Shown here: piece by piece, positions 3,285 to 40,663 of the stretch
How the letters are laid out: each line of letters opens with the position of its first letter
Position numbering within the stretch: position 1 is the stretch's first letter
Source of the DNA: a virus
Lineage: Duplodnaviria > Caudoviricetes
IMG/VR virus record: IMGVR_UViG_2877705454_000002
Coordinates: 3,933-67,932 of that record
Reading direction: 5' to 3' (one strand)
Length of the DNA stretch: 64,000 bases
Made by a program: the position numbers and the translations under genes
Notes under the pieces: model-generated
Database searches by the model: none
What the model was told of the DNA's origin: nothing
Seen by the model: the letters and a program-made list of their open reading frames with translations, nothing else

Positions 3285-4165
3285 TGCCGTTCACCCAACA
3301 GATCGACCGCGAACCCGTCCTGCGGCTTCTCCGCCTCGGCACCATGACCGAAACCGCCATCGCCAAACAGCTCGGCATCAGCCGGCCCACCGTCCACAAA
3401 ATCCGCACCCAACACGGACTCCCCGCACCACTGCGCGGATCCACACCCAAGCACCCCAGCCTCGAAGCCGCTTACCACGCCCACGCTCAGCCCAGCACAG
3501 ACGGGCACATCCTGTGGACCGGCGGCCGCCGCGGCGACACCCCCGTCATCCAACGCAGGCACACCTCCCACTCCGTCTACCGCATCGCGTTCCGCATCCG
3601 CCACGGCCGCAACCCCGAAGGCCGCGCCACCCTCGCCTGCAACACGCCGGGCTGTGTCGCCGGAGCGCACCTCGAAGACCAGGCGATGCGCAACGCCCGC
3701 CGCCAATACGAGCAGGCGCAGCGCCGCCGCCTCCCGAAGGGGCCGGCCGCCAACGGCACCCGCACAGACGTCCTCGCCCTGATCGGGCAGGGCATGTCGA
3801 ACCGGCAGATCGGCATCTTGCTGCGCACCAACCCGCTGCGCGTGGCCCGGATCCGGGCTGAGGAGGGCATGCCGAACGTGACGCGGGTGGTGGCGCCGCT
3901 GGACGACTGCTGGCGCACCCACACCCGACTGGTTGAGGGCGGGCATGTGGAATGGACGGGGCAGCGCCGTGAAGGGGCGCCCGTTCTCACCTGGCAGAAC
4001 CGCAGTCATCAGGCCCGACGGATCGCGTTCCGGATGGGGCATGGGCGGGAGCCGGAGGGGCGGGTGAAAGCAGGCTGCAACTTCCCGGACTGTGTCGCGC
4101 CCGACCACATGGAAGACGCCCGCCTCCGCGCCCTGTACGCCGCCGTTCTCGGGGCCGTGGCGTGA
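3284..4165 (+). CDS. Tandem (HTH + degenerate HNH-like) x2 DNA-binding protein
   Basis: Two internal repeats: HTH, then GHxxWTG...RIAF..HGR.PEG...C...CV...H.ED. Confidence 0.75.
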   Translation: MPFTQQIDREPVLRLLRLGTMTETAIAKQLGISRPTVHKIRTQHGLPAPLRGSTPKHPSLEAAYHAHAQPSTDGHILWTGGRRGDTPVIQRRHTSHSVYRIAFRIRHGRNPEGRATLACNTPGCVAGAHLEDQAMRNARRQYEQAQRRRLPKGPAANGTRTDVLALIGQGMSNRQIGILLRTNPLRVARIRAEEGMPNVTRVVAPLDDCWRTHTRLVEGGHVEWTGQRREGAPVLTWQNRSHQARRIAFRMGHGREPEGRVKAGCNFPDCVAPDHMEDARLRALYAAVLGAVA

Positions 4166-23874: not shown

Positions 23875-24489
23875 ATGGGCAGACCAGGCAACCCCAACAA
23901 CGACGACCGATCCGGCAACGGACGCTTCGTCCCCAGCCTTCGAACCGCAGAACGCCGTGCCGCAGCCGCCCGCCTCCGCCTCGAAGGCCACACCACCGCC
24001 CAAATCGCCGCCATGCCCGAACTCGGCTTCACGAGCGCCCAAGCCGTCAACGAAGCCCTCCGCGCCGTCCGCGAAGCCGCCATCCGCGAACCCGGCGAAG
24101 AACTCATCCGGATCGAGCTGGAGCGCCTCGACGCCCAACTCCTCCGCCTCAACGGCCTCGAAGCGAAAGCCCGCGAGGTTCTCGACGCCCGCCACATCGT
24201 CGTCAACAACGGCAAGGTCATCTACAACCCCGCCACCGATGCGCCGATGGAGGACGACACCCCCGTCCTCCAAGCCATCGACCGACTGGTGAAGATCGAG
24301 GACGCGAGGAACAGGAACGCCGAGAGGCGCGCCAAGCTCACCGGCATCGAAGCCGCCGTGAAGGTCGACGCCACTGTCCACGAAGTCACCCAGCAGGACA
24401 TCGCCCTGCAGGAGATGGTTGCTGAGATGCGCGCCAGGAACGCCAGCGTCGTTGACCATCTGCGCGCCGAGCGGGAACGGGGCGAGTGA
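23875..24489 (+). CDS. Terminase small subunit
   Basis: N-terminal HTH, directly upstream of and coupled to terL. Confidence 0.8.
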   Translation: MGRPGNPNNDDRSGNGRFVPSLRTAERRAAAARLRLEGHTTAQIAAMPELGFTSAQAVNEALRAVREAAIREPGEELIRIELERLDAQLLRLNGLEAKAREVLDARHIVVNNGKVIYNPATDAPMEDDTPVLQAIDRLVKIEDARNRNAERRAKLTGIEAAVKVDATVHEVTQQDIALQEMVAEMRARNASVVDHLRAERERGE

Positions 24490-26066
24490 CCACCGCTGTC
24501 GGCCGGACGCGCATCACCGACCCCTACGATCCGGCCGCGAACGCCGAGACGTTCGACTTCCCTGCTTGGGTTGGTGGCATCGACGCGCGCCTCCTCGACG
24601 GCACCCCCGAATACCGCGACGCCCGTATTGAGGCCACCAAATACGACCCGTTGCTCTTCGCTGTCCTGTACTGCCTGCACCACCTACGCAGCCCCGAAGG
24701 TGACATCACCTTCGCCGACGCCCACCTCAAATGGGTCCGTCTCGCCCGCCACTGGGCAATCCCACCGCGCGCGCCCATGGAGCAGCGCGACGCGTTCCTC
24801 GCCCCCCGGGACACCGGCAAGTCGACATGGATGCTGTTCATCCTCCCGCTGTGGGCGGCCGCGCACGGGCACGTCAAGTTCGCCGCGGTCTTCGCCGACT
24901 CCGGGCCGCAGGCCGAACTCCACCTCGCCACCTTCCGCAAAGAGGTCGACGGCAACACCGCGCTGCGCCGCGACTTCCCGGAACTGTGCACCGCGGGGCG
25001 TCGGCCGTCCGGGTCGGCCGAGTCCGATGCGAAGCACATGGTCATCCGGGCGAACGGCTTCATCTTCGCCGCCAAGGGAATCGACGCTTCCAGCCTCGGC
25101 ATGAAGGTCGGCCAACTGCGCCCCGACCTGCTACTGCTCGACGATGTGGAGCCGGACGAGTCGTCGTACTCCGCCTATCTGGCAGGGAAACGGCTGAAGA
25201 CGGTCACGGACGCGATCCTGCCGCTCAACATCTACGCCCGCGTCGTCTTGTCGGGCACGGTCACGCTCCCCGGAAGCGTCACGCACCAACTGGTGAAGTG
25301 GGGCAAGGGCGAGCGGGGCGAGATGAACGCGTGGGTGGGCGAGCAGCAGTTCCGCGTCCACCACCACCTGCCGATCATCCGCGACGACCACGGCAGCGAA
25401 CGATCGATGTGGCCGGCGAAGTGGCCCCTCGCCTATCTGAAGAAGATCGAACACACCCGCAGCTACCGGAAGAACTACCTCAACGACCCCATGGCCGCAG
25501 ACGGCGCCTACTGGTCGGAGAGCGACTTCACTTACGGCACCTTTCCAACCGCCCGCACCTACCTGTCCGTCGACGGCGCCGTCACCACAAAGAAGACCAG
25601 CGACTTCACTGGCCTGTCCGTCGTGAGCTGGGCGCCGGCCAGCGACGCGCAGCCAGCGCGCTGTCTGGTGAAGTTCGCGCAGGCCGTCAAGCTCAAGGGC
25701 AAGCCGTTGCGCGCCCGGATCCTGCAGATCCTGGAGAGCTTCCCCGAAATTGGCGCAATCCTCGTCGAGTCGAACCAGGGGGGCGACCTGTGGCTTGAGG
25801 TGCTCCATGACCTGCCCGTCAAAGTCGTCACCTTCTCCAACAGCGAGAAGAAGGAGACGCGCGCGGAGCGCCTCCTCAATCTGTATCAGCTGATCCCGAC
25901 GCGGGTGATGCACGCGGAGCCGCTGCCTGCGCTTGAGGAGCAGATGGTGGCATTCCCGAAGGCGCCGAACGATGACCTCGTCGATACGGTCGGCAACGCT
26001 GTCCTGCGGTTCCTGAAGCCGCCGATGCGGAAGAAGCTTTCGACGCGGTCCGTGAGCCCCAGATGA
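24486..26066 (+). CDS. terL: Terminase large subunit
   Basis: APRDTGKST, LLLLDD, SVDGA, VESNQGG, FPKAPNDDLVD. Confidence 0.93.
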   Translation: MTTAVGRTRITDPYDPAANAETFDFPAWVGGIDARLLDGTPEYRDARIEATKYDPLLFAVLYCLHHLRSPEGDITFADAHLKWVRLARHWAIPPRAPMEQRDAFLAPRDTGKSTWMLFILPLWAAAHGHVKFAAVFADSGPQAELHLATFRKEVDGNTALRRDFPELCTAGRRPSGSAESDAKHMVIRANGFIFAAKGIDASSLGMKVGQLRPDLLLLDDVEPDESSYSAYLAGKRLKTVTDAILPLNIYARVVLSGTVTLPGSVTHQLVKWGKGERGEMNAWVGEQQFRVHHHLPIIRDDHGSERSMWPAKWPLAYLKKIEHTRSYRKNYLNDPMAADGAYWSESDFTYGTFPTARTYLSVDGAVTTKKTSDFTGLSVVSWAPASDAQPARCLVKFAQAVKLKGKPLRARILQILESFPEIGAILVESNQGGDLWLEVLHDLPVKVVTFSNSEKKETRAERLLNLYQLIPTRVMHAEPLPALEEQMVAFPKAPNDDLVDTVGNAVLRFLKPPMRKKLSTRSVSPR

Positions 26067-26121: not shown

Positions 26122-26145
26122 GTGTCGTGGAGTGGAGGGGTAGGT

Positions 26146-27687
26146 ATGGCCGGTACGCCAGATCTCGTCAGTGCCTTCGCCGACCTGTGCGCCGCCCGCC
26201 CCGGCTACGCGAAAGCCGAGGCGTACTTCGACGGCGACGTCGACGAGATCTACGCCTCCGACAAGGTCGCCCGCCTCCTCGCCAAGTCGAACCTCGACGA
26301 ACTCGACGAAATCAACTTTGCGCGGATTCCCGTCACCGCCATCACCGACCGCCTCCACATCACTTCGATCACCACAGGCGACGACGACGCCGACGAGGAC
26401 ATCAAGGCACTCGTCAAACGGAACCAGCTCGACGAGGAACTCCCCGGCCTCCACACCCGCGCCTGCTCGCAGGGCGACGCCTACCTCATGGTCTGGCCCA
26501 CCCTCGACCCGGACGGGAACGTCGCCAACGTCGACATGCTCGTCAACAGCGCCGCCACCGTCCGCGTGATCTACGACGAGGAGAACCCCCTCCGCAAGAA
26601 ACTCGCCATCAAGTCCTGGACCAACGGCAGCGGCAAGGACCAGCAGATCCGCGCCGACCTCTACTACCCCCACCGCAGCGACGAGGATCCCGCACGGATC
26701 GAACGCTGGGTGTGGCAGGGCCGGCACCGCGGCAAGCAGGACAAGTGGCAGCCCTACACCGAGGACGGACAGGACGCGGTCCTGCCCAACCCGTGGGGCG
26801 AGATCCCCTTTTTCCACTACCGCACCGGCCGCCCTTACGGCCGGCCCGAGCACTATGCCGCTTACGGCGCCCAGTCGATCATCAACAAGCTGGTCGTGTC
26901 GCATGCGGCGACGATCGATTTTCAGAGTCTGCCGCAGCGGTATGGGCTGATCGATCCGACGGTGGATCAGTCGGGGATGCAGGGCGCGGACTTCGACGCC
27001 GACTCGCCCTACGACGAGGGCGCCGATCCGGAGAGCCCGGGGAACCCGTCGCAGTTGCGGAACGACCCGGGCGAGCTGTGGCTGCTGCAAGGCTTGAAGG
27101 GTGTCGGGCAGTTTGAGGCGGCGAACTCGGACACCTACCTGAAGCCGTTCGACCGCTATGTAAAGGCGATGGCGCAGGTCACGTCCACTCCGTTCTCAGA
27201 GTTCGACTCCACCGGCGACGCGATCTCCGGGAAAGCTCGGGTCGAGGCGCGCGCCTCACAGACCGCCCGGGTGCAGGCCCGGCAGCGCAGCTTGGGCGCC
27301 ACCCACGAGGACGCCTTCGAGTTCGCGCTGCGCCTCCTCGGATACGACGACCCCGACGTCACCGTGCGCTGGCAGCCCGCCGACTACCGCGACGACACCG
27401 AAGGCTGGGCCACCACCAGCGCAAAGATCGACGCCGGTGTGCCCCGCGAACGCGCCCTCATCGAAGCGGGCTGCCCGCCCGAGCTGGTCGAGGCATGGAT
27501 GCGCGACCTCGACGACGACGCCGAACTCGCCCGCCGCGCCGACCTCCTCCTGAAGATCGGCAACGCCGTACAGGCCCTCGGCACCGGCGTCCAACTCGGC
27601 GCCATCGAAGCCACCGACGTCACCAAGATCCTCGACAGCATGCTCGGCGCAGCCACCACTCTGGGCAGCACCGAGGCCAACCGCTGA
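26146..27687 (+). CDS. Portal protein (SPP1 gp6-like)
   Basis: YFDG, NFARIPV, NPWGEIP, YGRPEH; position after terL. Confidence 0.9.
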   Translation: MAGTPDLVSAFADLCAARPGYAKAEAYFDGDVDEIYASDKVARLLAKSNLDELDEINFARIPVTAITDRLHITSITTGDDDADEDIKALVKRNQLDEELPGLHTRACSQGDAYLMVWPTLDPDGNVANVDMLVNSAATVRVIYDEENPLRKKLAIKSWTNGSGKDQQIRADLYYPHRSDEDPARIERWVWQGRHRGKQDKWQPYTEDGQDAVLPNPWGEIPFFHYRTGRPYGRPEHYAAYGAQSIINKLVVSHAATIDFQSLPQRYGLIDPTVDQSGMQGADFDADSPYDEGADPESPGNPSQLRNDPGELWLLQGLKGVGQFEAANSDTYLKPFDRYVKAMAQVTSTPFSEFDSTGDAISGKARVEARASQTARVQARQRSLGATHEDAFEFALRLLGYDDPDVTVRWQPADYRDDTEGWATTSAKIDAGVPRERALIEAGCPPELVEAWMRDLDDDAELARRADLLLKIGNAVQALGTGVQLGAIEATDVTKILDSMLGAATTLGSTEANR

Positions 27688-30480: not shown

Positions 30481-30555
30481 CCGGCCTTTCGGACCGCCGC
30501 CGGGGATCGGGTGGGTGCCACCCCGGCGGCACCGGCCAACAGCGTGGGAGACGCG

Positions 30556-30921
30556 ATGGATTACGAGCAGATGAGTGTGCAGGAGCTGCGGGAGGCGTGT
30601 CAGGCCCGCGGTCTCGGCACCGCGCGCTCACGCGCCGACCTGATCCAGCGCCTCACCGGTCACGACGCCCGACGGGGGCCCGAGGACACGGTACAGGCCC
30701 CGATCAGCAGCCCTGAGTCTGTGATCCCGGCCTCCTTCACCACAACGTTCCCCGCGGAGCCCGACGGCCCGGACGAGGAGACCCACCTCGCCCACCGGCA
30801 GGCCACCATCCAAGCCGCGGCCGCAGCCGGGCTCGTTCCGCGCGGTGACGCCCGACGTGCTGCCACCCGGGACGGAGTGTGGGTGTACGAGGTGTCCGTC
30901 AGGCGGGGGGTTCCGTCATGA
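30556..30921 (+). CDS. SAP-domain protein
   Basis: MSVQELREACQARGL....RADLIQRL. Confidence 0.72.
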   Translation: MDYEQMSVQELREACQARGLGTARSRADLIQRLTGHDARRGPEDTVQAPISSPESVIPASFTTTFPAEPDGPDEETHLAHRQATIQAAAAAGLVPRGDARRAATRDGVWVYEVSVRRGVPS

Positions 30922-31373: not shown

Positions 31374-31702
31374 TGCTCGCAGTGGGGACGACCACGATCA
31401 CCGTCTACCGCGGCACGACCACCGATGCGTGGGGCGACGAAGCCGACACCGACACCCCGGTCCACACCGGCATCGTCGCGTCGATCACCGAACAGTCCCG
31501 CCGGGTCACCACCAGGGACGATCCGACGCCGCGGATCGTCCGCTACGCCGTCAGCCGCGTCACCGCAGGCACCGACATCACCGACCAGGACCGCATCCGC
31601 GACGAGCGCACCGGCGCCGTCTACATCGTCGAAGCCGTGTCCTCCATGAACTCGCCGGTCGTGGCCGCTGATCTGCGGCTCGACCTGCGCCGCACCACCT
31701 GA
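31373..31702 (+). CDS. Head-to-tail stopper
   Basis: D.WGDE...DRIRDE..Y.VE; position. Confidence 0.72.
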   Translation: MLAVGTTTITVYRGTTTDAWGDEADTDTPVHTGIVASITEQSRRVTTRDDPTPRIVRYAVSRVTAGTDITDQDRIRDERTGAVYIVEAVSSMNSPVVAADLRLDLRRTT

Positions 31703-31759
31703 CCGACAACCGAACAGGCCACACAGTCCGGGGAGACCGGGCGGCCAAGTAAGACACCA

Positions 31760-31900
31760 CCTTCGGAGAGGAGGCGGCCGTGACTCCACCTACCGCGAAC
31801 GCGGCAGGCTTCCTGCACCGCTGGCTATACAGCGTTACAGAGGACCAGCCCGGTCCTGAGAACGTTCAGTGCGCCAACCACGTCGGCATTGGCGCCGTGT
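31760..31900 (-). ncRNA. Predicted TnpB reRNA/omegaRNA; scaffold ends at TCAC (31780), guide GGCCGCCUCCUCUCCGAAGG; 5' boundary approximate
   Basis: Typical right-end motif following and overlapping the tnpB 3' end. Confidence 0.6.
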
Positions 31901-33036
31901 CTGCACGCAACGCACTTGAACTCTGCTTGGCTGACGCGGTTCTCCTTCGCAACGTGCCCGCATTCAGGGCAGGTGCGGGAGGTGTTGCGGGGGTCCACTG
32001 CGACAACGGTCCGACCGGCACTTTCAGCCTTGTTGGCGAGGATCGCAAGGAATACCCCCCAACCCACGTCGAGGATGTTGCGGTTGGTACTGGCCTTGGC
32101 GGAGGCTCCGTTCGGCAGGAAGTCGCCAAGCGCTGCGGGGTTAGGCTTCGGCGCAGGCGCCTTGGTCAGCCCCACCGTGTTCAGCCGCTCGTGGACGATC
32201 ACGTCGTGGTCCCGGACGAGGGCCAGCGCGGTCTTGTGGGCGTGGTCCAGCCTCTGTCTGCGCACCTTGGCGTGCAGAGTCGCCACCTTGCGAAGTGCTG
32301 CCTGGTGAGCCTTCGAGCGATCACGGGCGCGCTTCCGCGTCGGAAACGTCGACAGATGCCGTTGCGCGCTCGCCAGGTCTTCGGCTGCCGCAGTCAGGAA
32401 CCGAGGGTTGGCGACATGCTGGCCGTCGCTGGTGGTGAGGAAATGGGCCACCCCCATATCGACCCCAACAACGGCACCAGTTGCAGGGAGAGGCTCGGCG
32501 TCCATTTCGTCACAGGCGAGTACGACGAACCAGCGTCCACCCTCACGCTTCACGCTGATCGTTTTGACACGGCCGCGCACCGGGCGGTGCTGGTGCACGC
32601 GGACATGGCCAACCCCCTGGAGGCGGACGCGAGTCTGCGGGTCGTGCGGGGTGGAGTCCCAGCGGCAACCGTCACCGTCCTTCGGGAAGACGACGGTATC
32701 GAAGTGACCGACGCCCTTGAAGCGCGGGTAGCCGGGCGTCTGCCCGGCCTTGACGCGGCGGAAGAAGGCTTGGAACGCCTTGTCGAGGCGGCGCAGGGTG
32801 GCTTGCTGGGAGGAGAACGACCAGCGACCTTGACGTTCGGGGTCGAAGGCGCGGATGCCACTCAACTGGGCGGACTGCATGCCGTACCGGACGTTGGTCT
32901 TCGAGTCGTGCTGGTAGGCGCCCCGGCGTTCCTGGAGCGCGCCGTTGTACAGCGAGCAGTGGTCCCGCATCATCTCGCCCAGCGCGACCGCCTGACGGGC
33001 CGTGGGGCGCAGGAGGAACTTGTACGCGCGGATCAC
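31825..33036 (-). CDS. tnpB: TnpB RNA-guided endonuclease
   Basis: RAYKFLLRPT, GVDMG (RuvC-I D), VHERL (RuvC-II E), TSRTCPECG/CVAC zinc finger, NADVVGALN (RuvC-III D). Confidence 0.95.
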   Translation of the reverse strand: MIRAYKFLLRPTARQAVALGEMMRDHCSLYNGALQERRGAYQHDSKTNVRYGMQSAQLSGIRAFDPERQGRWSFSSQQATLRRLDKAFQAFFRRVKAGQTPGYPRFKGVGHFDTVVFPKDGDGCRWDSTPHDPQTRVRLQGVGHVRVHQHRPVRGRVKTISVKREGGRWFVVLACDEMDAEPLPATGAVVGVDMGVAHFLTTSDGQHVANPRFLTAAAEDLASAQRHLSTFPTRKRARDRSKAHQAALRKVATLHAKVRRQRLDHAHKTALALVRDHDVIVHERLNTVGLTKAPAPKPNPAALGDFLPNGASAKASTNRNILDVGWGVFLAILANKAESAGRTVVAVDPRNTSRTCPECGHVAKENRVSQAEFKCVACRHGANADVVGALNVLRTGLVLCNAV

Positions 33037-33194
33037 GCCTGGCGCCTCCGTTCAACGCGGAGGGCGTCGGCGAGGAGAACGCAGGCAGCGGCGTTGATCG
33101 AGATGCCCGCCCGATGGGCGTACTCCTCGATCTGCCGCTTCAGTTCCGGGGGGACGCGAAGGTTCAGCGACTCCCGGCGATCTCCTCTAGCCAC
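33033..33194 (-). CDS. Arc/RHH (HicB-like) DNA-binding protein
   Basis: LNLRVPPELKRQIEEYAHRAGISIN; coupled to tnpB. Confidence 0.78.
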   Translation of the reverse strand: MARGDRRESLNLRVPPELKRQIEEYAHRAGISINAAACVLLADALRVERRRQA

Positions 33195-33234
33195 AACCAA
33201 AATGCTACCACTTTGCAGCCACTGGAGGGCGGCC

Positions 33235-33606
33235 ATGGCGCGATCCGGCGTGCGGATCGACCCCAGCGCACGCGCGCACGTCGACGCGGCGATCAACGAC
33301 TGGCTCAGCGATGTCATCGGCGACGCCATCCTCTCCGACGCCCGCGACTTCGTCCCCAAGCGCACCAGCCGCCTCCACGACTCCCTCCGCGCCGAGGTCC
33401 AAGGCAAAGTCCTGCGGGTCGGGTCGCTGGACGTGAACTACTGCACAGCCATCGAGATGGGCCTCCCCGCGATGACCATCACGCCCCGGTTCAAGCAGGC
33501 CCTGTACTGGGAGGGCGCCGACCACCCGGTGAAGAAGGTCAACCTGCCGGCCCGCCCGCCTCAGCCGTTTTTGCGTCCCGCTCTTTTCCAGCGGAGGACG
33601 GCATGA
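33235..33606 (+). CDS. HK97 gp10-like neck/tail completion protein
   Basis: VPKRTSRL..SL...Y...IEMG...PQPFLRPAL. Confidence 0.82.
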   Translation: MARSGVRIDPSARAHVDAAINDWLSDVIGDAILSDARDFVPKRTSRLHDSLRAEVQGKVLRVGSLDVNYCTAIEMGLPAMTITPRFKQALYWEGADHPVKKVNLPARPPQPFLRPALFQRRTA

Positions 33607-34464: not shown

Positions 34465-35025
34465 GTGAGCGTCAACACCACCAACCTCATCCAGGGGCCG
34501 GCGACCCTCTACAAGGGCGATTACGGGGCGGCCGAGCCGGCCGACACCGACGTCAACACCACCCCGGCCGCGTCCTCGTGGACGGACATGGGCGGCACCC
34601 AGGACGGCGTGAAGCTCAGCGTGGACCAGACCTACTCGGAGCTGGAAGTCGACCAGATCACCCTCCGTGTCGGGTCGCGGCTGACGAAGCAGGACTTCAT
34701 GATCGAAACGTCGCTGGCGGAGGCCACGCTGGAGAACTTCTCCATCAGCCTCAACGGCGGCACCGCCGCGTCCGGGTCCGGCTACAAGAGCTTCGAACCC
34801 AACGTCACCAGCTCGGCGACGCAGCCGAACTACTTCGCGGTCATCCTCGACGGGTACGCGCCCGAGCAGCTCCGCCGCCGCATCATCGGCCGCCGCATGC
34901 TCAACACGGAGTCGTCCGAGCTGGCGTACACGAAGGACAAGCAGACGCTGATCCCGGTGAAGTTCGCCGGCCACTACGTCAGCTCGGTGATCGCCCCGTT
35001 CCACATCACCGACGAAGTGACCTGA
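34465..35025 (+). CDS. Major tail protein
   Basis: GPATLY, DMGGTQDGV, EVDQ, LAEATLEN. Confidence 0.85.
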   Translation: MSVNTTNLIQGPATLYKGDYGAAEPADTDVNTTPAASSWTDMGGTQDGVKLSVDQTYSELEVDQITLRVGSRLTKQDFMIETSLAEATLENFSISLNGGTAASGSGYKSFEPNVTSSATQPNYFAVILDGYAPEQLRRRIIGRRMLNTESSELAYTKDKQTLIPVKFAGHYVSSVIAPFHITDEVT

Positions 35026-35845: not shown

Positions 35846-38800
35846 ATGGCCGGGGCGTTTCGCATCGCCGAGGGGTTCGTCGAGGTCACAGCCGACGAGT
35901 CGGGCTACGACCGTGCGATGGCCCGGCTGAAGTCGAAGAAGAACACCGTCAAGCTTGGCGTGGACCTCGACGACAAGGCGGCCCGAACCAAGCTGGCCGC
36001 CCTGGTCAAGCCGCTCACTGTGAAGCTCACGGCCGACCTCGACGACAAAGCCGTCTCGACTTCGCTGCGCAACCTGGCCAAGGCCCGCCACGTCAAGCTC
36101 ACCGCCCAACTGGACGACAAGGCCGCCGCCAGCGGACTGGCCAAGCTGACCCGCGACCGCACGGTCAAGCTCACCGCCCAGTTCGACGACACCACAGCCA
36201 AGACCAAACTCGCCCGCCTCTCCGGCACCCAGACCGTCTCCGTCGCACCCGAAATCCAGCAGGCCGCCTACAACCGCGCAAAGAAGCTCCTCGACCGTCT
36301 CACCGCCGACCGTGTCGTCAACATTCGCGCCACCGCCGACACCCGCGTCGCAGCCGACGAGATCCGCAATCTCACACAGCGCCGCCGCGTCCGCATCGGT
36401 GTCGACGTCGACACCCGCGTTGCAGCCGACGACATCGCCAACCTGACCCGGCGCCGGCAGATGACCGTGCAAGCCCGCGCCGACACCACAGCCGCCACCA
36501 ACTCGCTGCGGTTCCTCACCCGCGACCGCACCGTCACCGTCCGCGCCCGCATGCTCGGCAGCCTCGCCGGACTTGCCGGGCTCGGCACCAACGCCAGCAA
36601 CGCGGCCGGTGGTGTCGGCATGCTCGGTGGGCGGTTCGCGCAGCTCGCGGCGGCCGCTCTGCTGGCGTTGCCCTCGGTGGCGTCGCTGGGGTCGGCGATC
36701 GTGCAGATGGGGCCTGCCGTGGCGGTGGCGGTGCCCGCGCTGGGCTCCCTGCTCACCATGGGCGCTGCCCTCGCTGTTGGGTTGCGGGGGGTTGGCGGGG
36801 CGTTCAAGGCGGCGTCGCAGGCCAGTGCGCAGGGGTCTGCTGGGGCGTCGTCCGCGGCGAACGCTTTGGCGTCCGCGCATCTGGCTGTGGCCCGGTCCGC
36901 TCGGGCGTTGCGGGAGGCGCAGCAGGACGCGGCGCGGCAGATCAGCGACGCGCAGCGCAGGGTGAAGGACGCCGCCGAGGATGTGCGGGATGCCGAGGTG
37001 CGGGCCGCCGCTGACCGACAGGCCGCACTCCGCCGGGTCGCGGACGCCGAACGTGATCTGACCGATGCGGTCAAGGACGCCAAGCGGGCGCAGGAGGATC
37101 TCACCGACGCCCGTAAGGAAGCCGCCGACCAGCTCGAAGACTTGGACTCGCGGCTCGCGAACGCGGAGCTGGACCAGAAACAGAACGTGTTCGATCTCCA
37201 GGATGCGGAGAAGGAACTCGCTGCGGTCAAGGCGAAGGGCGCGGCAGCGTCGGCGGACGATGTCGCCCGCGCGCAGCTCGCCTACGACAAGGCCGTCCAG
37301 CGGCTGAAGGACCAGCAGACCGAAACCCAGCGGCTCCGCGAAGAGGCCGCGGCCGCCAACGCGGCAGGGGTGGAGGGCTCGGAGACCGTCGTCGCCGCGC
37401 AGGAGAGGGTTGCGGGCGCTCAGCGCAAGGTCGCGGATCAGGCCAGGGATGTGGCGGACGCGCAGGCTGCTGCGGCGCAGACGGCGAAGGAGGGCGCCGA
37501 CTCGGTCCGTGACGCGCAGGACCGCCTCGCCCAGGCGCAGCAGGGTGTGGCCGACGCGCAGGTCGCGGCATCCAGGCAGGTGCGTTCGGCTCAGGAGTCC
37601 CTCGCCGACGCCCAGCGGGCGGTCACCGCAGCCCAGGAACGGGGCGCGTCCGCCACCAACACCTACGCCGACGCGATGGCCCGCCTCTCCCCGAACGCGC
37701 GCGCCTTCGTCACCGCCGTGCGCGACATGGGGCCCGCGTTCTCCGCCCTGCGCATGGACGTCCAGGACCGCCTCTTCCGGGGCTTGGGCGATTCGTTCAC
37801 CCGCATGGCCACCGCGTCGCTGCCCGCGCTGCGGTCGGGGCTGGTCGGCATGGCCGGGGTGCTGAACAACATGGGCCGCGGCCTCATGGACACGTTCACA
37901 CGGCTCGCCGACGAGGGCCTGCTGAAGCGGATGTTCGACGGCTTCACGAAGAGCATGAAGCCCCTGGAGAAGGTGCCGGGCCAGTTCGGCGAGATGTTCG
38001 TGAAGCTGGGTATCGCGGCGCAGCCGGCGTTGACGCGGATCACGACGGCGATGGGGTCGGGGGTTTCCCGGTTCACGGAGCAGCTCGGCCAGGCGTTCGA
38101 GTCGGGCGCGCTGGAAGAGAAAATCAACGGCGCGGTGGAGATCGCGAAGCAGTTCGGGAAGCTGCTCGGCGATGTTTTCGGCACCCTCAGCAACATCATG
38201 AAGGCCGCGTCGGCCGGCGGCGGGGACGCGCTGGGCGCGCTCGGAGCCGTGTTCGCTGAGCTGCGGCGGGTCACGGCGATGCCTGAGGTGCAGAAGGCGC
38301 TGACGAGCATCTTCCAGGCTGTCAACGCGATCGCCAAGCTGCTGGCCGGCACTCTGGGGGCGGTGATCGAGGCGGCGTTGCCGCTGCTGGCCGCTCTCGC
38401 CCCGGTGGTGACCGAGCTTGCGACGAAGTTCGGGCCTGTCCTGGCTGATCTGGCGGCCGAGTTGGGCAAGGCTCTGATGCCGATCATCGTTGCGCTGCTG
38501 CCCGTGGTTCAGGAGCTGGGCGGGATCCTGGTTGATCTGGTCGGTGCGGTGGTGCCGCTGTTGCAGCCGATCGGGGATCTCCTTGCTGTCGTGATCAAGG
38601 CGTTGGCGCCGGTGCTGCCGGTGATCGGCGATGTGCTGATCATGCTGGTAGGGGCGCTGGTGACGGGGTTGAAGCCGGTGATCACGGCGTTGATTCCTGC
38701 GGTTGGCGTGTTTGGTGAGCTGATCGGGCAGTTGGCGCCGATGCTGCTGCCGCTGTATGAGGCGGTGATGCCGCTGATTCCGGTGCTGGGTGAGATGGCG

Positions 38801-40663
38801 GCGACGTTGATCACGCTGGCTTTGCGGGTGATCGCTCCGTTGCTGCCGTTGATTGTCGGGCTGGCGGGGCTCATGTCCGGGCTGCTGGCGGGTGCGATCG
38901 GCGCGATCGTCCCGAAGATCATCACAGTGGTGGGCTGGTTCCAGAAGTTCGCCGACAAGGCCACCGAGGTTGTCGGGTGGATCGTGGAGAAGTTCCAGTG
39001 GCTGTACGACGTCCTCGTCGGTCATTCGATCGTCCCCGACCTGGTCAACGGGATCCTCGGCTGGTTCGGCACGCTGTGGACGAAGACGAAGGAGCTGTTC
39101 ACCAGCCTGAAGAACTGGCTGATCACCACCTGGAACGGCATCTGGACCGGCGCGCGCACGAAGTGGGACAGCTTCTGGACGGGCCTGCGGACGGCGATCA
39201 CCAACGCGTGGACGAGCGTCAAGACCAAGTTCGGTGAGCTGAAGACCAGCCTGACCAACACGTGGAACGGACTGTGGAACGGCATCAGCACAAAGATCAG
39301 CTCGATCTTCACCACCATCAACACCAAGATCGCAAACTTCAAGACCGGCATGAAGACCGCCTTCTCCAACCTCAAGACCGAACTCGGCACCATCTGGGAC
39401 GGCGTCAAGTCGAAGATCTCCAGCCCCGTCAAATGGGTCATCGACAAGGTCTACATGCAAGGCATCCGCAAAATGTGGAACGCCGTCGCAGGCAGCGTCT
39501 CCTCCAAACTCACCCTCCCCGCCATCAGCCTCGGCTTCAACAAGGGCGGCGTCGTCCCCGGCACCGGCAACCGCGACACCGTCCCCGCCATGCTCACCCC
39601 CGGCGAACGCATCCTCTCCACCCAGCAGGTCGCCCAACTCGGCGGCCACCGGAGCATTGACGCCATGCTCGGCCGCGACCGCCCCACGAAGACAGGCGGC
39701 AACCCCTCCCGGCAGGAAGAGCGGCAGCGCTACCAGGGGCCGGTGCAGCACTTCGACAAGGGCGGCATCGTCGGCTCCGTCACCTCGGCGATCGGCGGCG
39801 CCATCTCCTCCGCCACCTCCTGGGCCAAGGACCTGGTCGTCGGCGGCCTCAAAGCCGCAGCGCAGAAGGCGATCGCCTCCCTGGTCAAGCCGCTCATCGG
39901 CTCGATTCCCGCAGGGGGGATGGGGTCGCTGATGAAGGGCATGTCCAACAAGGCCCTCGATTCCATGCTGTCCTTCCTCGGTAACGAGGACAAGAAGGCC
40001 GTCGGCGGGCCCGCCGTGCAGAAGGCCCTGTCGTGGGCGCGGACCCAGAACGGGCTGCCCTACCAGTGGGGCGGCAACGGGAACCCCTCCTGGGACTGTA
40101 GTGGTCTGACCTCCGCGGTCGAGTCCGTGATCCGCGGCGAGCGCCCACACCGCCGGTGGGCAACCGGCTCGTTCGTCGGGAGCAGCGGCCCGTCCGGCTG
40201 GGTGCGGAACCTCAAGAGCCCGTACATGATCGGCATCACCAACGCCGGCGTCGGCCACACGGCGGGCACCATCGGCGGCGTCAACATCGAGTCCCGCGGC
40301 GGGGACGGCGTGGTCATCGGCTCCCGCGCCCGCGGCTACAACGACCGCCTGTTCACCTCCCAGTGGGGCTTCGCGCCAGTCGCGAAGTACGACTCGGGCG
40401 GCCTGCTTGCTGATGGGGCGACGATGGTCGTCAAGCAGACTCGGAAGCCGGAACGAGTCCTCGACCCGCGGCAGACCGAGCTGTTCGAGCAGCTCGTCAC
40501 CGGTGGCGGGACGGCCGGCAGCGTGACGGTTGAGCGCCTCGAAGTGTGCGTGAACGGGACGTTCGACTTCTCCAGCCCGGCCGAACGCAAGCGGGTCGCG
40601 GTCGCCCTCGCAGACGACGTGAAGGAAGCCCTCCGCAAGCTTGAGAACTCCAGGAAGCGGTGA
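35846..40663 (+). CDS. Tape measure protein with C-terminal NlpC/P60-like domain
   Basis: 1605 aa, Ala-rich coiled coils, Trp-periodic repeats, PYQWGG...WDCSG...GHT. Confidence 0.93.
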   Translation: MAGAFRIAEGFVEVTADESGYDRAMARLKSKKNTVKLGVDLDDKAARTKLAALVKPLTVKLTADLDDKAVSTSLRNLAKARHVKLTAQLDDKAAASGLAKLTRDRTVKLTAQFDDTTAKTKLARLSGTQTVSVAPEIQQAAYNRAKKLLDRLTADRVVNIRATADTRVAADEIRNLTQRRRVRIGVDVDTRVAADDIANLTRRRQMTVQARADTTAATNSLRFLTRDRTVTVRARMLGSLAGLAGLGTNASNAAGGVGMLGGRFAQLAAAALLALPSVASLGSAIVQMGPAVAVAVPALGSLLTMGAALAVGLRGVGGAFKAASQASAQGSAGASSAANALASAHLAVARSARALREAQQDAARQISDAQRRVKDAAEDVRDAEVRAAADRQAALRRVADAERDLTDAVKDAKRAQEDLTDARKEAADQLEDLDSRLANAELDQKQNVFDLQDAEKELAAVKAKGAAASADDVARAQLAYDKAVQRLKDQQTETQRLREEAAAANAAGVEGSETVVAAQERVAGAQRKVADQARDVADAQAAAAQTAKEGADSVRDAQDRLAQAQQGVADAQVAASRQVRSAQESLADAQRAVTAAQERGASATNTYADAMARLSPNARAFVTAVRDMGPAFSALRMDVQDRLFRGLGDSFTRMATASLPALRSGLVGMAGVLNNMGRGLMDTFTRLADEGLLKRMFDGFTKSMKPLEKVPGQFGEMFVKLGIAAQPALTRITTAMGSGVSRFTEQLGQAFESGALEEKINGAVEIAKQFGKLLGDVFGTLSNIMKAASAGGGDALGALGAVFAELRRVTAMPEVQKALTSIFQAVNAIAKLLAGTLGAVIEAALPLLAALAPVVTELATKFGPVLADLAAELGKALMPIIVALLPVVQELGGILVDLVGAVVPLLQPIGDLLAVVIKALAPVLPVIGDVLIMLVGALVTGLKPVITALIPAVGVFGELIGQLAPMLLPLYEAVMPLIPVLGEMAATLITLALRVIAPLLPLIVGLAGLMSGLLAGAIGAIVPKIITVVGWFQKFADKATEVVGWIVEKFQWLYDVLVGHSIVPDLVNGILGWFGTLWTKTKELFTSLKNWLITTWNGIWTGARTKWDSFWTGLRTAITNAWTSVKTKFGELKTSLTNTWNGLWNGISTKISSIFTTINTKIANFKTGMKTAFSNLKTELGTIWDGVKSKISSPVKWVIDKVYMQGIRKMWNAVAGSVSSKLTLPAISLGFNKGGVVPGTGNRDTVPAMLTPGERILSTQQVAQLGGHRSIDAMLGRDRPTKTGGNPSRQEERQRYQGPVQHFDKGGIVGSVTSAIGGAISSATSWAKDLVVGGLKAAAQKAIASLVKPLIGSIPAGGMGSLMKGMSNKALDSMLSFLGNEDKKAVGGPAVQKALSWARTQNGLPYQWGGNGNPSWDCSGLTSAVESVIRGERPHRRWATGSFVGSSGPSGWVRNLKSPYMIGITNAGVGHTAGTIGGVNIESRGGDGVVIGSRARGYNDRLFTSQWGFAPVAKYDSGGLLADGATMVVKQTRKPERVLDPRQTELFEQLVTGGGTAGSVTVERLEVCVNGTFDFSSPAERKRVAVALADDVKEALRKLENSRKR

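Follow-up and report, generated by a model that had tools for sequence, protein, structure and literature searches.

A transposase-less arc–tnpB cassette between the Shine–Dalgarno region and start codon of a phage neck gene

Guide-RNA-directed cutting of vacant insertion sites is an established means of homing for the TnpB proteins of transposase-bearing elements (PMC8612924; 10.1101/2023.03.14.532601; 10.1101/2023.11.20.567912), and the Arc protein of IS605-family elements is reported to bind and repress the transposon promoter (Moon et al., bioRxiv 10.64898/2026.09.24.754181). We analysed 64,000 nucleotides of a Caudoviricetes virus (positions 3,933 to 67,932 of IMG/VR record IMGVR_UViG_2877705454_000002), a stretch of high-GC DNA from an 8.5-Mb source genome that we call the window and number from its first letter. 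Within a late phage operon, the window holds an insert of 1,455 bp (31780–33234) that carries tnpB and a small arc-like gene and stands exactly between the ribosome-binding site (RBS) and the start codon of a gene for a head–tail joining ('neck') protein of a Streptomyces prophage. The cassette is a precisely bounded, genuine insertion with neither a transposase gene nor a complete left end (LE). We lean, with modest confidence, towards reading it as a non-autonomous member of the IS200/IS605 family whose retention, and perhaps spread, depends on cutting of empty alleles directed by its guide RNA.

The cassette resembles the ISDra2 and Geobacillus TnpB elements (Karvelis 2021, PMC8612924; Meers 2023, 10.1101/2023.03.14.532601) in its domain set and catalytic residues, in a putative scaffold encoded by the right end (RE) and followed by a predicted flank-derived guide, in a transposon-associated motif (TAM) that is the transposase target beside the LE, and in an empty allele composed of TAM and guide match. 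It differs from them in lacking both tnpA and the LE hairpin, so that peel-and-paste transposition is impossible, in having CCAT as its TAM, and in occupying a phage structural operon exactly between Shine–Dalgarno (SD) sequence and ATG. Arc-containing IS605 elements likewise place a small ribbon–helix–helix (RHH) protein beside tnpB and a conserved box upstream; in that clade arc and tnpA usually face away from tnpB, whereas the arc gene in the window points the same way as tnpB, whose start it overlaps, and stands in place of tnpA (bioRxiv 10.64898/2026.09.24.754181). Phage homing endonuclease genes, free-standing or in introns, share with our locus a conserved essential site, an empty/occupied polymorphism and disruption of the resident site, but here recognition would be RNA-guided rather than by protein, no intron or intein is involved, and the host gene would be rescued by a carried SD. 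IS1341-type (tnpB-only) elements also lack the transposase gene; they normally retain both ends, so that TnpA can act in trans, whereas the window element has only 20 nt of its LE and carries an arc gene. Unlike an autonomous IS605-type transposon, the cassette has no Y1 tnpA and no subterminal LE hairpin, although a conserved RE is present, and unlike the nuclease-dead TnpB relative TldR it retains the RuvC triad. Laboratory demonstrations of TnpB homing have used elements that bear a transposase; the present cassette cannot transpose and yet persists in a phage family at a single exact site.

Boundaries, target and alleles of the cassette

The RE of the cassette is defined by its relatives. 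A GTCAC terminus was present in 18 of 18 sequences whose alignment reaches the end of the RE, with divergence immediately beyond it; 16 of them read GGAGTCAC and two read GGGGTCAC, and a regular-expression search recovered this terminus at 46 of 50 loci. With GTCAC as the common terminus of the relatives, the RE boundary lies at 31780, where the earlier note had put a TCAC end, and the predicted guide runs from 31779 downwards. A boundary shifted by up to 7 nt, as a GGCGGCC repeat at the junctions would permit, was ruled out on the same ground. Compensatory changes at three pairs of an RE hairpin (31788–31809), in 3, 7 and 6 of the 18 sequences, indicate covariation.

Read on the plus strand, the guide region is the original SD region of the neck gene. 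A similarity search of 400 other genomes of the genus, with the neck gene and not the junction itself as the query, returned long alignments for four loci (L004–L007), the remaining matches being short and GC-rich. The INPHARED phage collection, searched with a 4-kb region, gave only a 66-nt match. In L004, L005 and L006 the homologue of the sequence ending at 31779 abuts, without a gap, the homologue of that beginning at 33235; the junction, GGAGAGGAGGCGGCC followed directly by ATGGCG, is present letter for letter in L004 and L005, and L006 has ATGACG. The exact 20-mer of positions 31760–31779 occurs in 16 records of genome_contigs (nine Streptomyces prophages and seven unrelated chance matches) and in 25 IMG/VR contigs of viral_contigs, all 25 of them phage. 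All 34 phage or prophage records with the 20-mer are empty alleles, 32 with ATGG (one cut at the contig end) and two with ATGA. Since one record was recovered twice (L095 is the same as L006), the empty junction that the earlier note had proposed seeking in related prophages was found in 36 distinct records. Every one carries the 20-mer directly before the ATG, as expected if the guide corresponds to an orphaned RBS, and the insertion point between RBS and start codon is borne out by the same alleles. The TAM is CCAT in 34 of the 36 and TCAT in two, and guide identity is 20/20 throughout. The flanks of the empty-allele records are only 68–81% identical to the window, which makes the target an island of perfect conservation. 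The match of predicted anatomy and empty junction far exceeds chance.

Two further observations concern this site. The 20–22 nt before the neck ATG are invariant in the 36 records (window 31738–31779; L089–L128), beyond what an SD alone would require. In L006/L095 and L102, ATGA replaces ATGG (Thr2 instead of Ala2), so that the CCAT TAM is broken and the 20-mer kept; these records could represent an escape allele or neutral variation.

Occupied alleles were found in soil metagenomes. In the first (X3), a 1,676-nt contig with a depth of 33.8 (record 8) spans the RE junction: it covers 31498–31638 of the upstream flank with 22 differences (of 141, 15.6%), replaces the next 91 letters by 84 unrelated ones, and covers 31730–33180, the element part, with 97 differences (of 1,451, 6.7%). 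Another contig of X3 (record 11) spans the truncated-LE junction, covering 33154–33264 with one difference. In the second (X4), a 1,624-nt contig (record 17, depth 6.5) spans both junctions and matches 31728–33303 with 129 differences. X4 also contains the empty junction, in a contig whose part from 33228 onwards directly follows the final bases of the old RBS, and depth there is 30–70 in the flanks versus 6.5 inside the element. At least two more samples therefore contain the truncated cassette, and X4 has both alleles together. The lower divergence of the X3 element (6.7%) than of its flank (15.6%) fits lateral spread, without proving it.

The other end is delimited by the TAM. On the tnpB strand, GCCAT stands directly before the insert. 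In a MAFFT alignment of tnpA-type left ends, conservation begins at CCA(T/C)CAG in 10 of 15, with unrelated DNA before it, and four full-length RHH-type copies read CCAT, then CAGAT, then a CCGGC...GCCGG hairpin. In later counts by regular expression, 26 of 28 copies had CCAT and the other two had CCAC, with a pattern that presupposes CCA[TC] and is thus not independent. The left ends of full-length relatives hence start right after CCAT, in agreement with the (G)CCAT that the earlier note had proposed, and by sequence comparison this reads as the TAM of the insertion sequence (IS) family.

The LE itself is truncated, a feature missing from the earlier note. The distance from TAM to the conserved box upstream of arc is 147 to 161 nt in the full-length RHH-type copies of this set and 20 nt in the window; with only 20 nt between CCAT and box, the transposase-binding hairpin is gone. 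On the plus strand the remnant carries GGAGGG, 5 nt ahead of the ATG at 33235, where a replacement SD supplied by the element had been predicted. By eye, full-length RHH-type left ends already have an SD before the ATG on the opposite strand, so rescue of translation did not require a deletion. On the tnpB strand the remnant opens with GGCCGCC, the same 7 nt with which the target begins; the insert is thus flanked by a 7-bp direct repeat, GGCGGCC, which is single in the empty allele. We did not adopt the view that this repeat is a target-site duplication made by a transposase; full-length copies of the family show none by eye. CCGCCC is found at the equivalent internal place in L035 and L045, so the left junction looks like a join at short microhomology. 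It may have arisen by interrupted copying: an occupied donor would have served as template for the repair of a broken empty allele, with copying that entered at the RE and ended prematurely at the microhomology. The expected outcome is an exact junction at the RE, a TAM-proximal segment in two copies and an LE that is cut short. Alternatively, it may stem from a later deletion.

Genes and putative guide scaffold of the cassette

TnpB is predicted to be an intact nuclease. It matches the Pfam domains OrfB_IS605, Cas12f1-like_TNB and HTH_OrfB_IS605, with E values of 7.7e-19 and 2.1e-19 for the OrfB_IS605 (RuvC) and C-terminal zinc-ribbon/TNB domains, both above the cut-offs, as well as phrog_506 (E 4.7e-82) and, by phmmer, the solved ISDra2 TnpB (E 2.3e-27). 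The three RuvC acidic residues and the zinc finger reported before were all found, the former in the motifs GVDMG (D193), VHERL (E283) and NADVV (D385) and the latter in CPEC/CVAC (C356, C359, C375, C378), and these motifs line up with those of a solved TnpB-like nuclease. No Y1_Tnp (HUH transposase) match was found by Pfam among the open reading frames (ORFs) of the insert, where only a 55-aa RHH ORF besides tnpB has a family match; the reported absence of tnpA holds.

This RHH ORF, the arc gene, was missing from the earlier note. Its stop overlaps the tnpB start (GTGA), and it occupies the slot held by tnpA in most relatives. It matches HicB (E 1.8e-5, above cut-off), FitA-like RHH (E 2e-3) and Arc (E 5e-3, below the Arc cut-off) in Pfam and an Arc-like repressor in PHROG (E 4e-6). 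The conserved box upstream of it, AAAGTGGTAGCAT, is a possible extended −10 promoter, Arc operator or both. A terminator scan also returned a small inverted repeat overlapping the box (GCTGC...GTAGC, 33204–33219, minus strand), which could be an Arc operator.

For the putative omega-RNA scaffold, RNAalifold gave a consensus over 18 copies with 49 pairs, eight of them with compensatory changes. Rfam yielded no omega-RNA family for the scaffold region; a match to Acido-Lenti-1 (18 bits against a threshold of 37) was dismissed as chance.

The cassette lies antisense to a late operon that occupies 24–41 kb of the plus strand. The neck protein has a weak PHROG match to tail completion/Neck1 (E 2.6e-4), and its gene is flanked by head genes on one side, which lie between the portal gene and the neck region in operon order, and by tail tube and tape measure genes on the other. 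All coordinates given in the earlier note proved correct; the features are collected in Table 1.

Table 1. Positions of the cassette, its parts and its neighbours in the window
Feature	Position	Strand	Basis
Terminase	24486–26066	+	late operon
Portal	26122–27687	+	late operon
Predicted omega-RNA guide/target, 20 nt after RE	31760–31779	−	adjoins conserved RE
7-bp direct repeat GGCGGCC, copy 1	31773–31779	+	window sequence
RE, 45-nt tail 3′ of tnpB stop, ending GGAGTCAC	31780–31824	−	alignment, regular expression, covariation
Putative omega-RNA scaffold, overlapping tnpB 3′ end	31780–31999	−	RNAalifold
Antisense through-ORF, 608 codons	31780–33606	+	open frame into neck gene
tnpB, 403 aa, GTG start, RuvC triad and zinc finger intact	31825–33036	−	Pfam, phmmer, motifs
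arc-like RHH gene, 55 aa	33033–33200	−	Pfam, PHROG
Conserved box AAAGTGGTAGCAT upstream of arc	33202–33214	−	conserved in six RHH-type copies
LE remnant, 20 nt	33215–33234	−	comparison with full-length RHH-type copies
7-bp direct repeat GGCGGCC, copy 2	33228–33234	+	window sequence
TAM CCAT (plus strand ATGG: neck start codon and next base)	33235–33238	−	full-length relatives
Interrupted host gene, 123-aa neck protein	33235–33606	+	PHROG match, synteny
Tail tube	34465–35025	+	late operon
Tape measure	35846–40663	+	late operon

Proposed guide-RNA cutting and the competing explanations

The cassette appears to have every sequence feature that TnpB homing would require. In the scheme that we favour, the arc–tnpB operon would be transcribed in the lysogen from its own Arc-repressed promoter, and from the 3′ part of the resulting transcript TnpB would release an omega-RNA whose guide is the 20 nt beyond the RE, that is, the old neck RBS. 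The complex could then cut any related phage genome with CCAT and the 20-mer, which is to say the empty allele. Repair from an occupied copy would restore or copy the cassette (homing), and unrepaired cuts would harm a competitor. The occupied allele would be protected because only the seven TAM-proximal bases of its LE remnant match the guide, and no second exact target was found in the host genome that would lead to self-targeting. Neck translation would be kept by the SD in the LE remnant. Expression, cleavage, homing and RBS function are what we infer here from the sequence; the interpretation offered in the earlier note, homing or superinfection exclusion, is in this sense partly supported, and its sequence-level predictions were all borne out.

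Several results weigh against retention by cutting. None of the 36 assembled relatives is occupied, which disfavours a strong drive. An 18-mer of the occupied junction had no match in viral_contigs, and its 36 matches in metagenome_contigs show no further similarity and were set aside as chance; with neither occupied relatives nor true junction matches, any drive must be weak or recent. The truncated LE could simply be decay, and the lower divergence of the X3 element could reflect constraint or ordinary phage mosaicism. Another metagenome, X2, was dropped as evidence of transfer: identical tnpB pieces lie there beside diverged flanks, but the overlapping flank contigs have 0 and 12 differences, which suggests two prophages and leaves the sample ambiguous. 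A promoter scan returned no sites, with no sigma-70 consensus at the box (33202–33214). The sole trace of RNA is one 280-nt contig with eight differences from a root metatranscriptome (X5), its strand and source not readable; we rejected it as evidence of expression, as too short and unstranded. Finally, a GTG at 31780 behind the strong original SD would yield a 608-aa fusion with the neck protein, which looks harmful.

The occupied and empty alleles could also be accounted for by a single arrival, through TnpA acting in trans or aberrant repair, followed by loss of the LE and vertical inheritance with the phage lineage, TnpB being idle or doing no more than preventing loss. The truncated LE and missing tnpA suit this account, as do the one partial Y1 transposase match in the host genome, the vacancy of all 36 assembled relatives, and the 7–8% divergence of the X3 and X4 copies from the window, which is compatible with old vertical descent. 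Yet despite that divergence among occupied alleles tnpB is full length with all its catalytic residues, the guide still matches all empty alleles at 20/20 positions, and occupied and empty alleles occur together in one sample. We judge an inert survivor to be unlikely, although it is the alternative that we take most seriously. That TnpB binds without cutting and regulates the neck operon or a competitor has a precedent in TnpB relatives exapted as repressors in phages (bioRxiv 10.1101/2023.11.30.569447), but the RuvC D-E-D triad and zinc finger are intact and the resident copy offers no full target, so this is very improbable.

More akin to retention by cutting is the proposal that the prophage, and with it the host, retains the cassette for the destruction by TnpB, in the lysogen, of incoming related phages with the empty allele, as a guide-RNA form of superinfection exclusion of which homing is a by-product. 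The target is an invariant, essential translation-initiation site in all 36 relatives, whose flanks are about 75–80% identical; expression in lysogeny is conceivable for a cassette antisense to the late operon; and the ATGA of two of the 36 records (L006/L095 and L102), which breaks the TAM, could be an escape. A precedent of a different kind is an intron homing endonuclease that aids phage competition (PMC11620839). The occupied allele is rare, however. Moreover, many start codons of ordinary chromosomal genes are also occupied by this IS family, so the position needs no phage-specific explanation: with 14 of 29 copies (window included) on host start codons, at 11 distinct gene starts, these are the usual niche of the family, and a position between SD and ATG does not by itself point to phage competition. 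We regard a dedicated weapon as improbable. We found no publication that describes start-codon targeting by IS605 elements, CCAT as a TAM or the use of TnpB as a weapon between phages.

The locus raises the question of whether a gene can be maintained or spread by guide-RNA cutting alone, and whether such cutting serves phage–phage competition. With a predicted target that is invariant in dozens of relatives and both alleles in one soil sample, these questions are testable in culturable Streptomyces phages. It also directs attention to a compact TnpB that is native to Streptomyces and whose TAM, CCAT, is short and GC-compatible.

Start codons and an antisense frame in the IS family

The element was matched in 87 of 400 other genomes of the genus at E <= 1e-50, a tally that includes one unpublished genome (G130). 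In most relatives tnpB is immediately preceded by a Y1 tnpA in tandem or divergent orientation; six copies, namely that of the window and L002, L034, L035, L036 and L045, carry the RHH gene instead, with an equivalent arc ORF in each of the latter five. L002 (G000:C1:838703-840129) is a second RHH-type arc–tnpB copy in the same genome, 77% identical and at a non-phage site, whose left end is degenerate: the hairpin is partly deleted and no junction of CCAT with CAG is recognisable.

The start-codon niche of the family had escaped the earlier note. A left end could be called in 28 relatives, and in 21 of these the ATG of the TAM opens an ORF of 60 or more codons in the flank. Eleven of these 21 match a protein family at E <= 1e-5, and seven are co-linear with the N terminus of the profile: a NikB/OppB permease (1–300 versus 1–302 of 314), FabH (2–299 versus 4–295 of 322), a Cupin_6/AraC regulator (2–196 versus 1–183 of 183), an acyl-CoA dehydrogenase, Ccr, PdxH and an S33-like hydrolase. 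The host genes of L035 and L039 are orthologues of that of L034.

Different subtypes can occupy orthologous start codons. That of a hydrolase-like gene holds RHH-type copies in L034 and L035 and a tnpA-type copy in L039, and that of an MscS-like gene holds an RHH-type deletion copy in L045 and a divergent-tnpA copy in L080; in both cases (L034 and L035 versus L039; L045 versus L080) the RE flanks are alike. These differences could reflect independent insertions, in situ replacement of the cassette or guide-directed events.

An unusual open frame runs antisense to tnpB in the closest subfamily, to which the window element belongs. On the host-gene strand these copies begin with GTGAC and end in CTG directly before ATGG. 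In 8 of 12 complete copies the frame from the GTG has no stops and closes at TGATG, the TGA overlapping the ATG; the other two frames have 3–18 stops, and six copies of a sister subfamily have 7–15 stops in the corresponding frame. Two of the eight stop-free copies are in-frame internal-deletion derivatives. The RE tail is 45 nt long in 10 of 10 copies with an intact tnpB stop. In the window the GTG stands at the former ATG position, behind the original SD and in frame with the neck gene, and the TGA of the left end has been lost, so that the frame continues into that gene; its 485-aa antisense part matches no Pfam family.

Three comparisons bear on whether the frame is maintained, all of them to be read with the caveat that it is the GC3 'shadow' frame of tnpB and that the copies are related to one another. 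Synonymous shuffles of tnpA have 1.0–1.8 stops on average, and six of seven real copies have none. For tnpB, within-gene synonymous shuffling is uninformative, as the three offending codons are absent, and we therefore compared codon use: CTA and TCA make up 0 of 495 codons versus 4 of 185 in the sister subfamily without the frame (p about 0.005, hand calculation). A strong SD precedes the GTG in only 11 of 46 copies; the opposite strand has one in 3 of 46, and the background is 15%, so that the enrichment is modest.

We tentatively consider it possible that the closest subfamily, the window element included, is organised so that it can insert at a host start codon and leave the gene active. 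In the proposed design, insertion after CCAT and antisense to the host gene lets the RE put a GTG where the ATG was, behind the host SD, and the antisense frame, open through the whole 1.1–1.85-kb element, is closed by the TGA of the LE, which overlaps the ATG that has been displaced (TGATG). Ribosomes would pass through the transposon from the host SD and initiate anew on the host gene; some left ends carry an SD of their own. If confirmed, the habit of settling on start codons, together with an SD or a read-through frame brought along by the element, would represent a novel means by which a transposon spares its host.

Some smaller observations concern the same copies and the surrounding prophage. 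Two internally deleted elements, L045 (1,142 bp, tnpB cut) and L050 (1,631 bp, tnpA cut), keep the antisense frame open from GTG to TGATG. Four genomes (L037, L041, L043 and L076) share an RE flank beginning GAAGTTCTTCATC; on the other strand it reads ATGAAGAACTTC directly before the GTG of the element, as if a host gene, after its first four codons, continued in frame into the element. Among the head genes of the prophage, positions 30511–30921 of the window encode a SAP-domain protein (Pfam E 7.9e-9).

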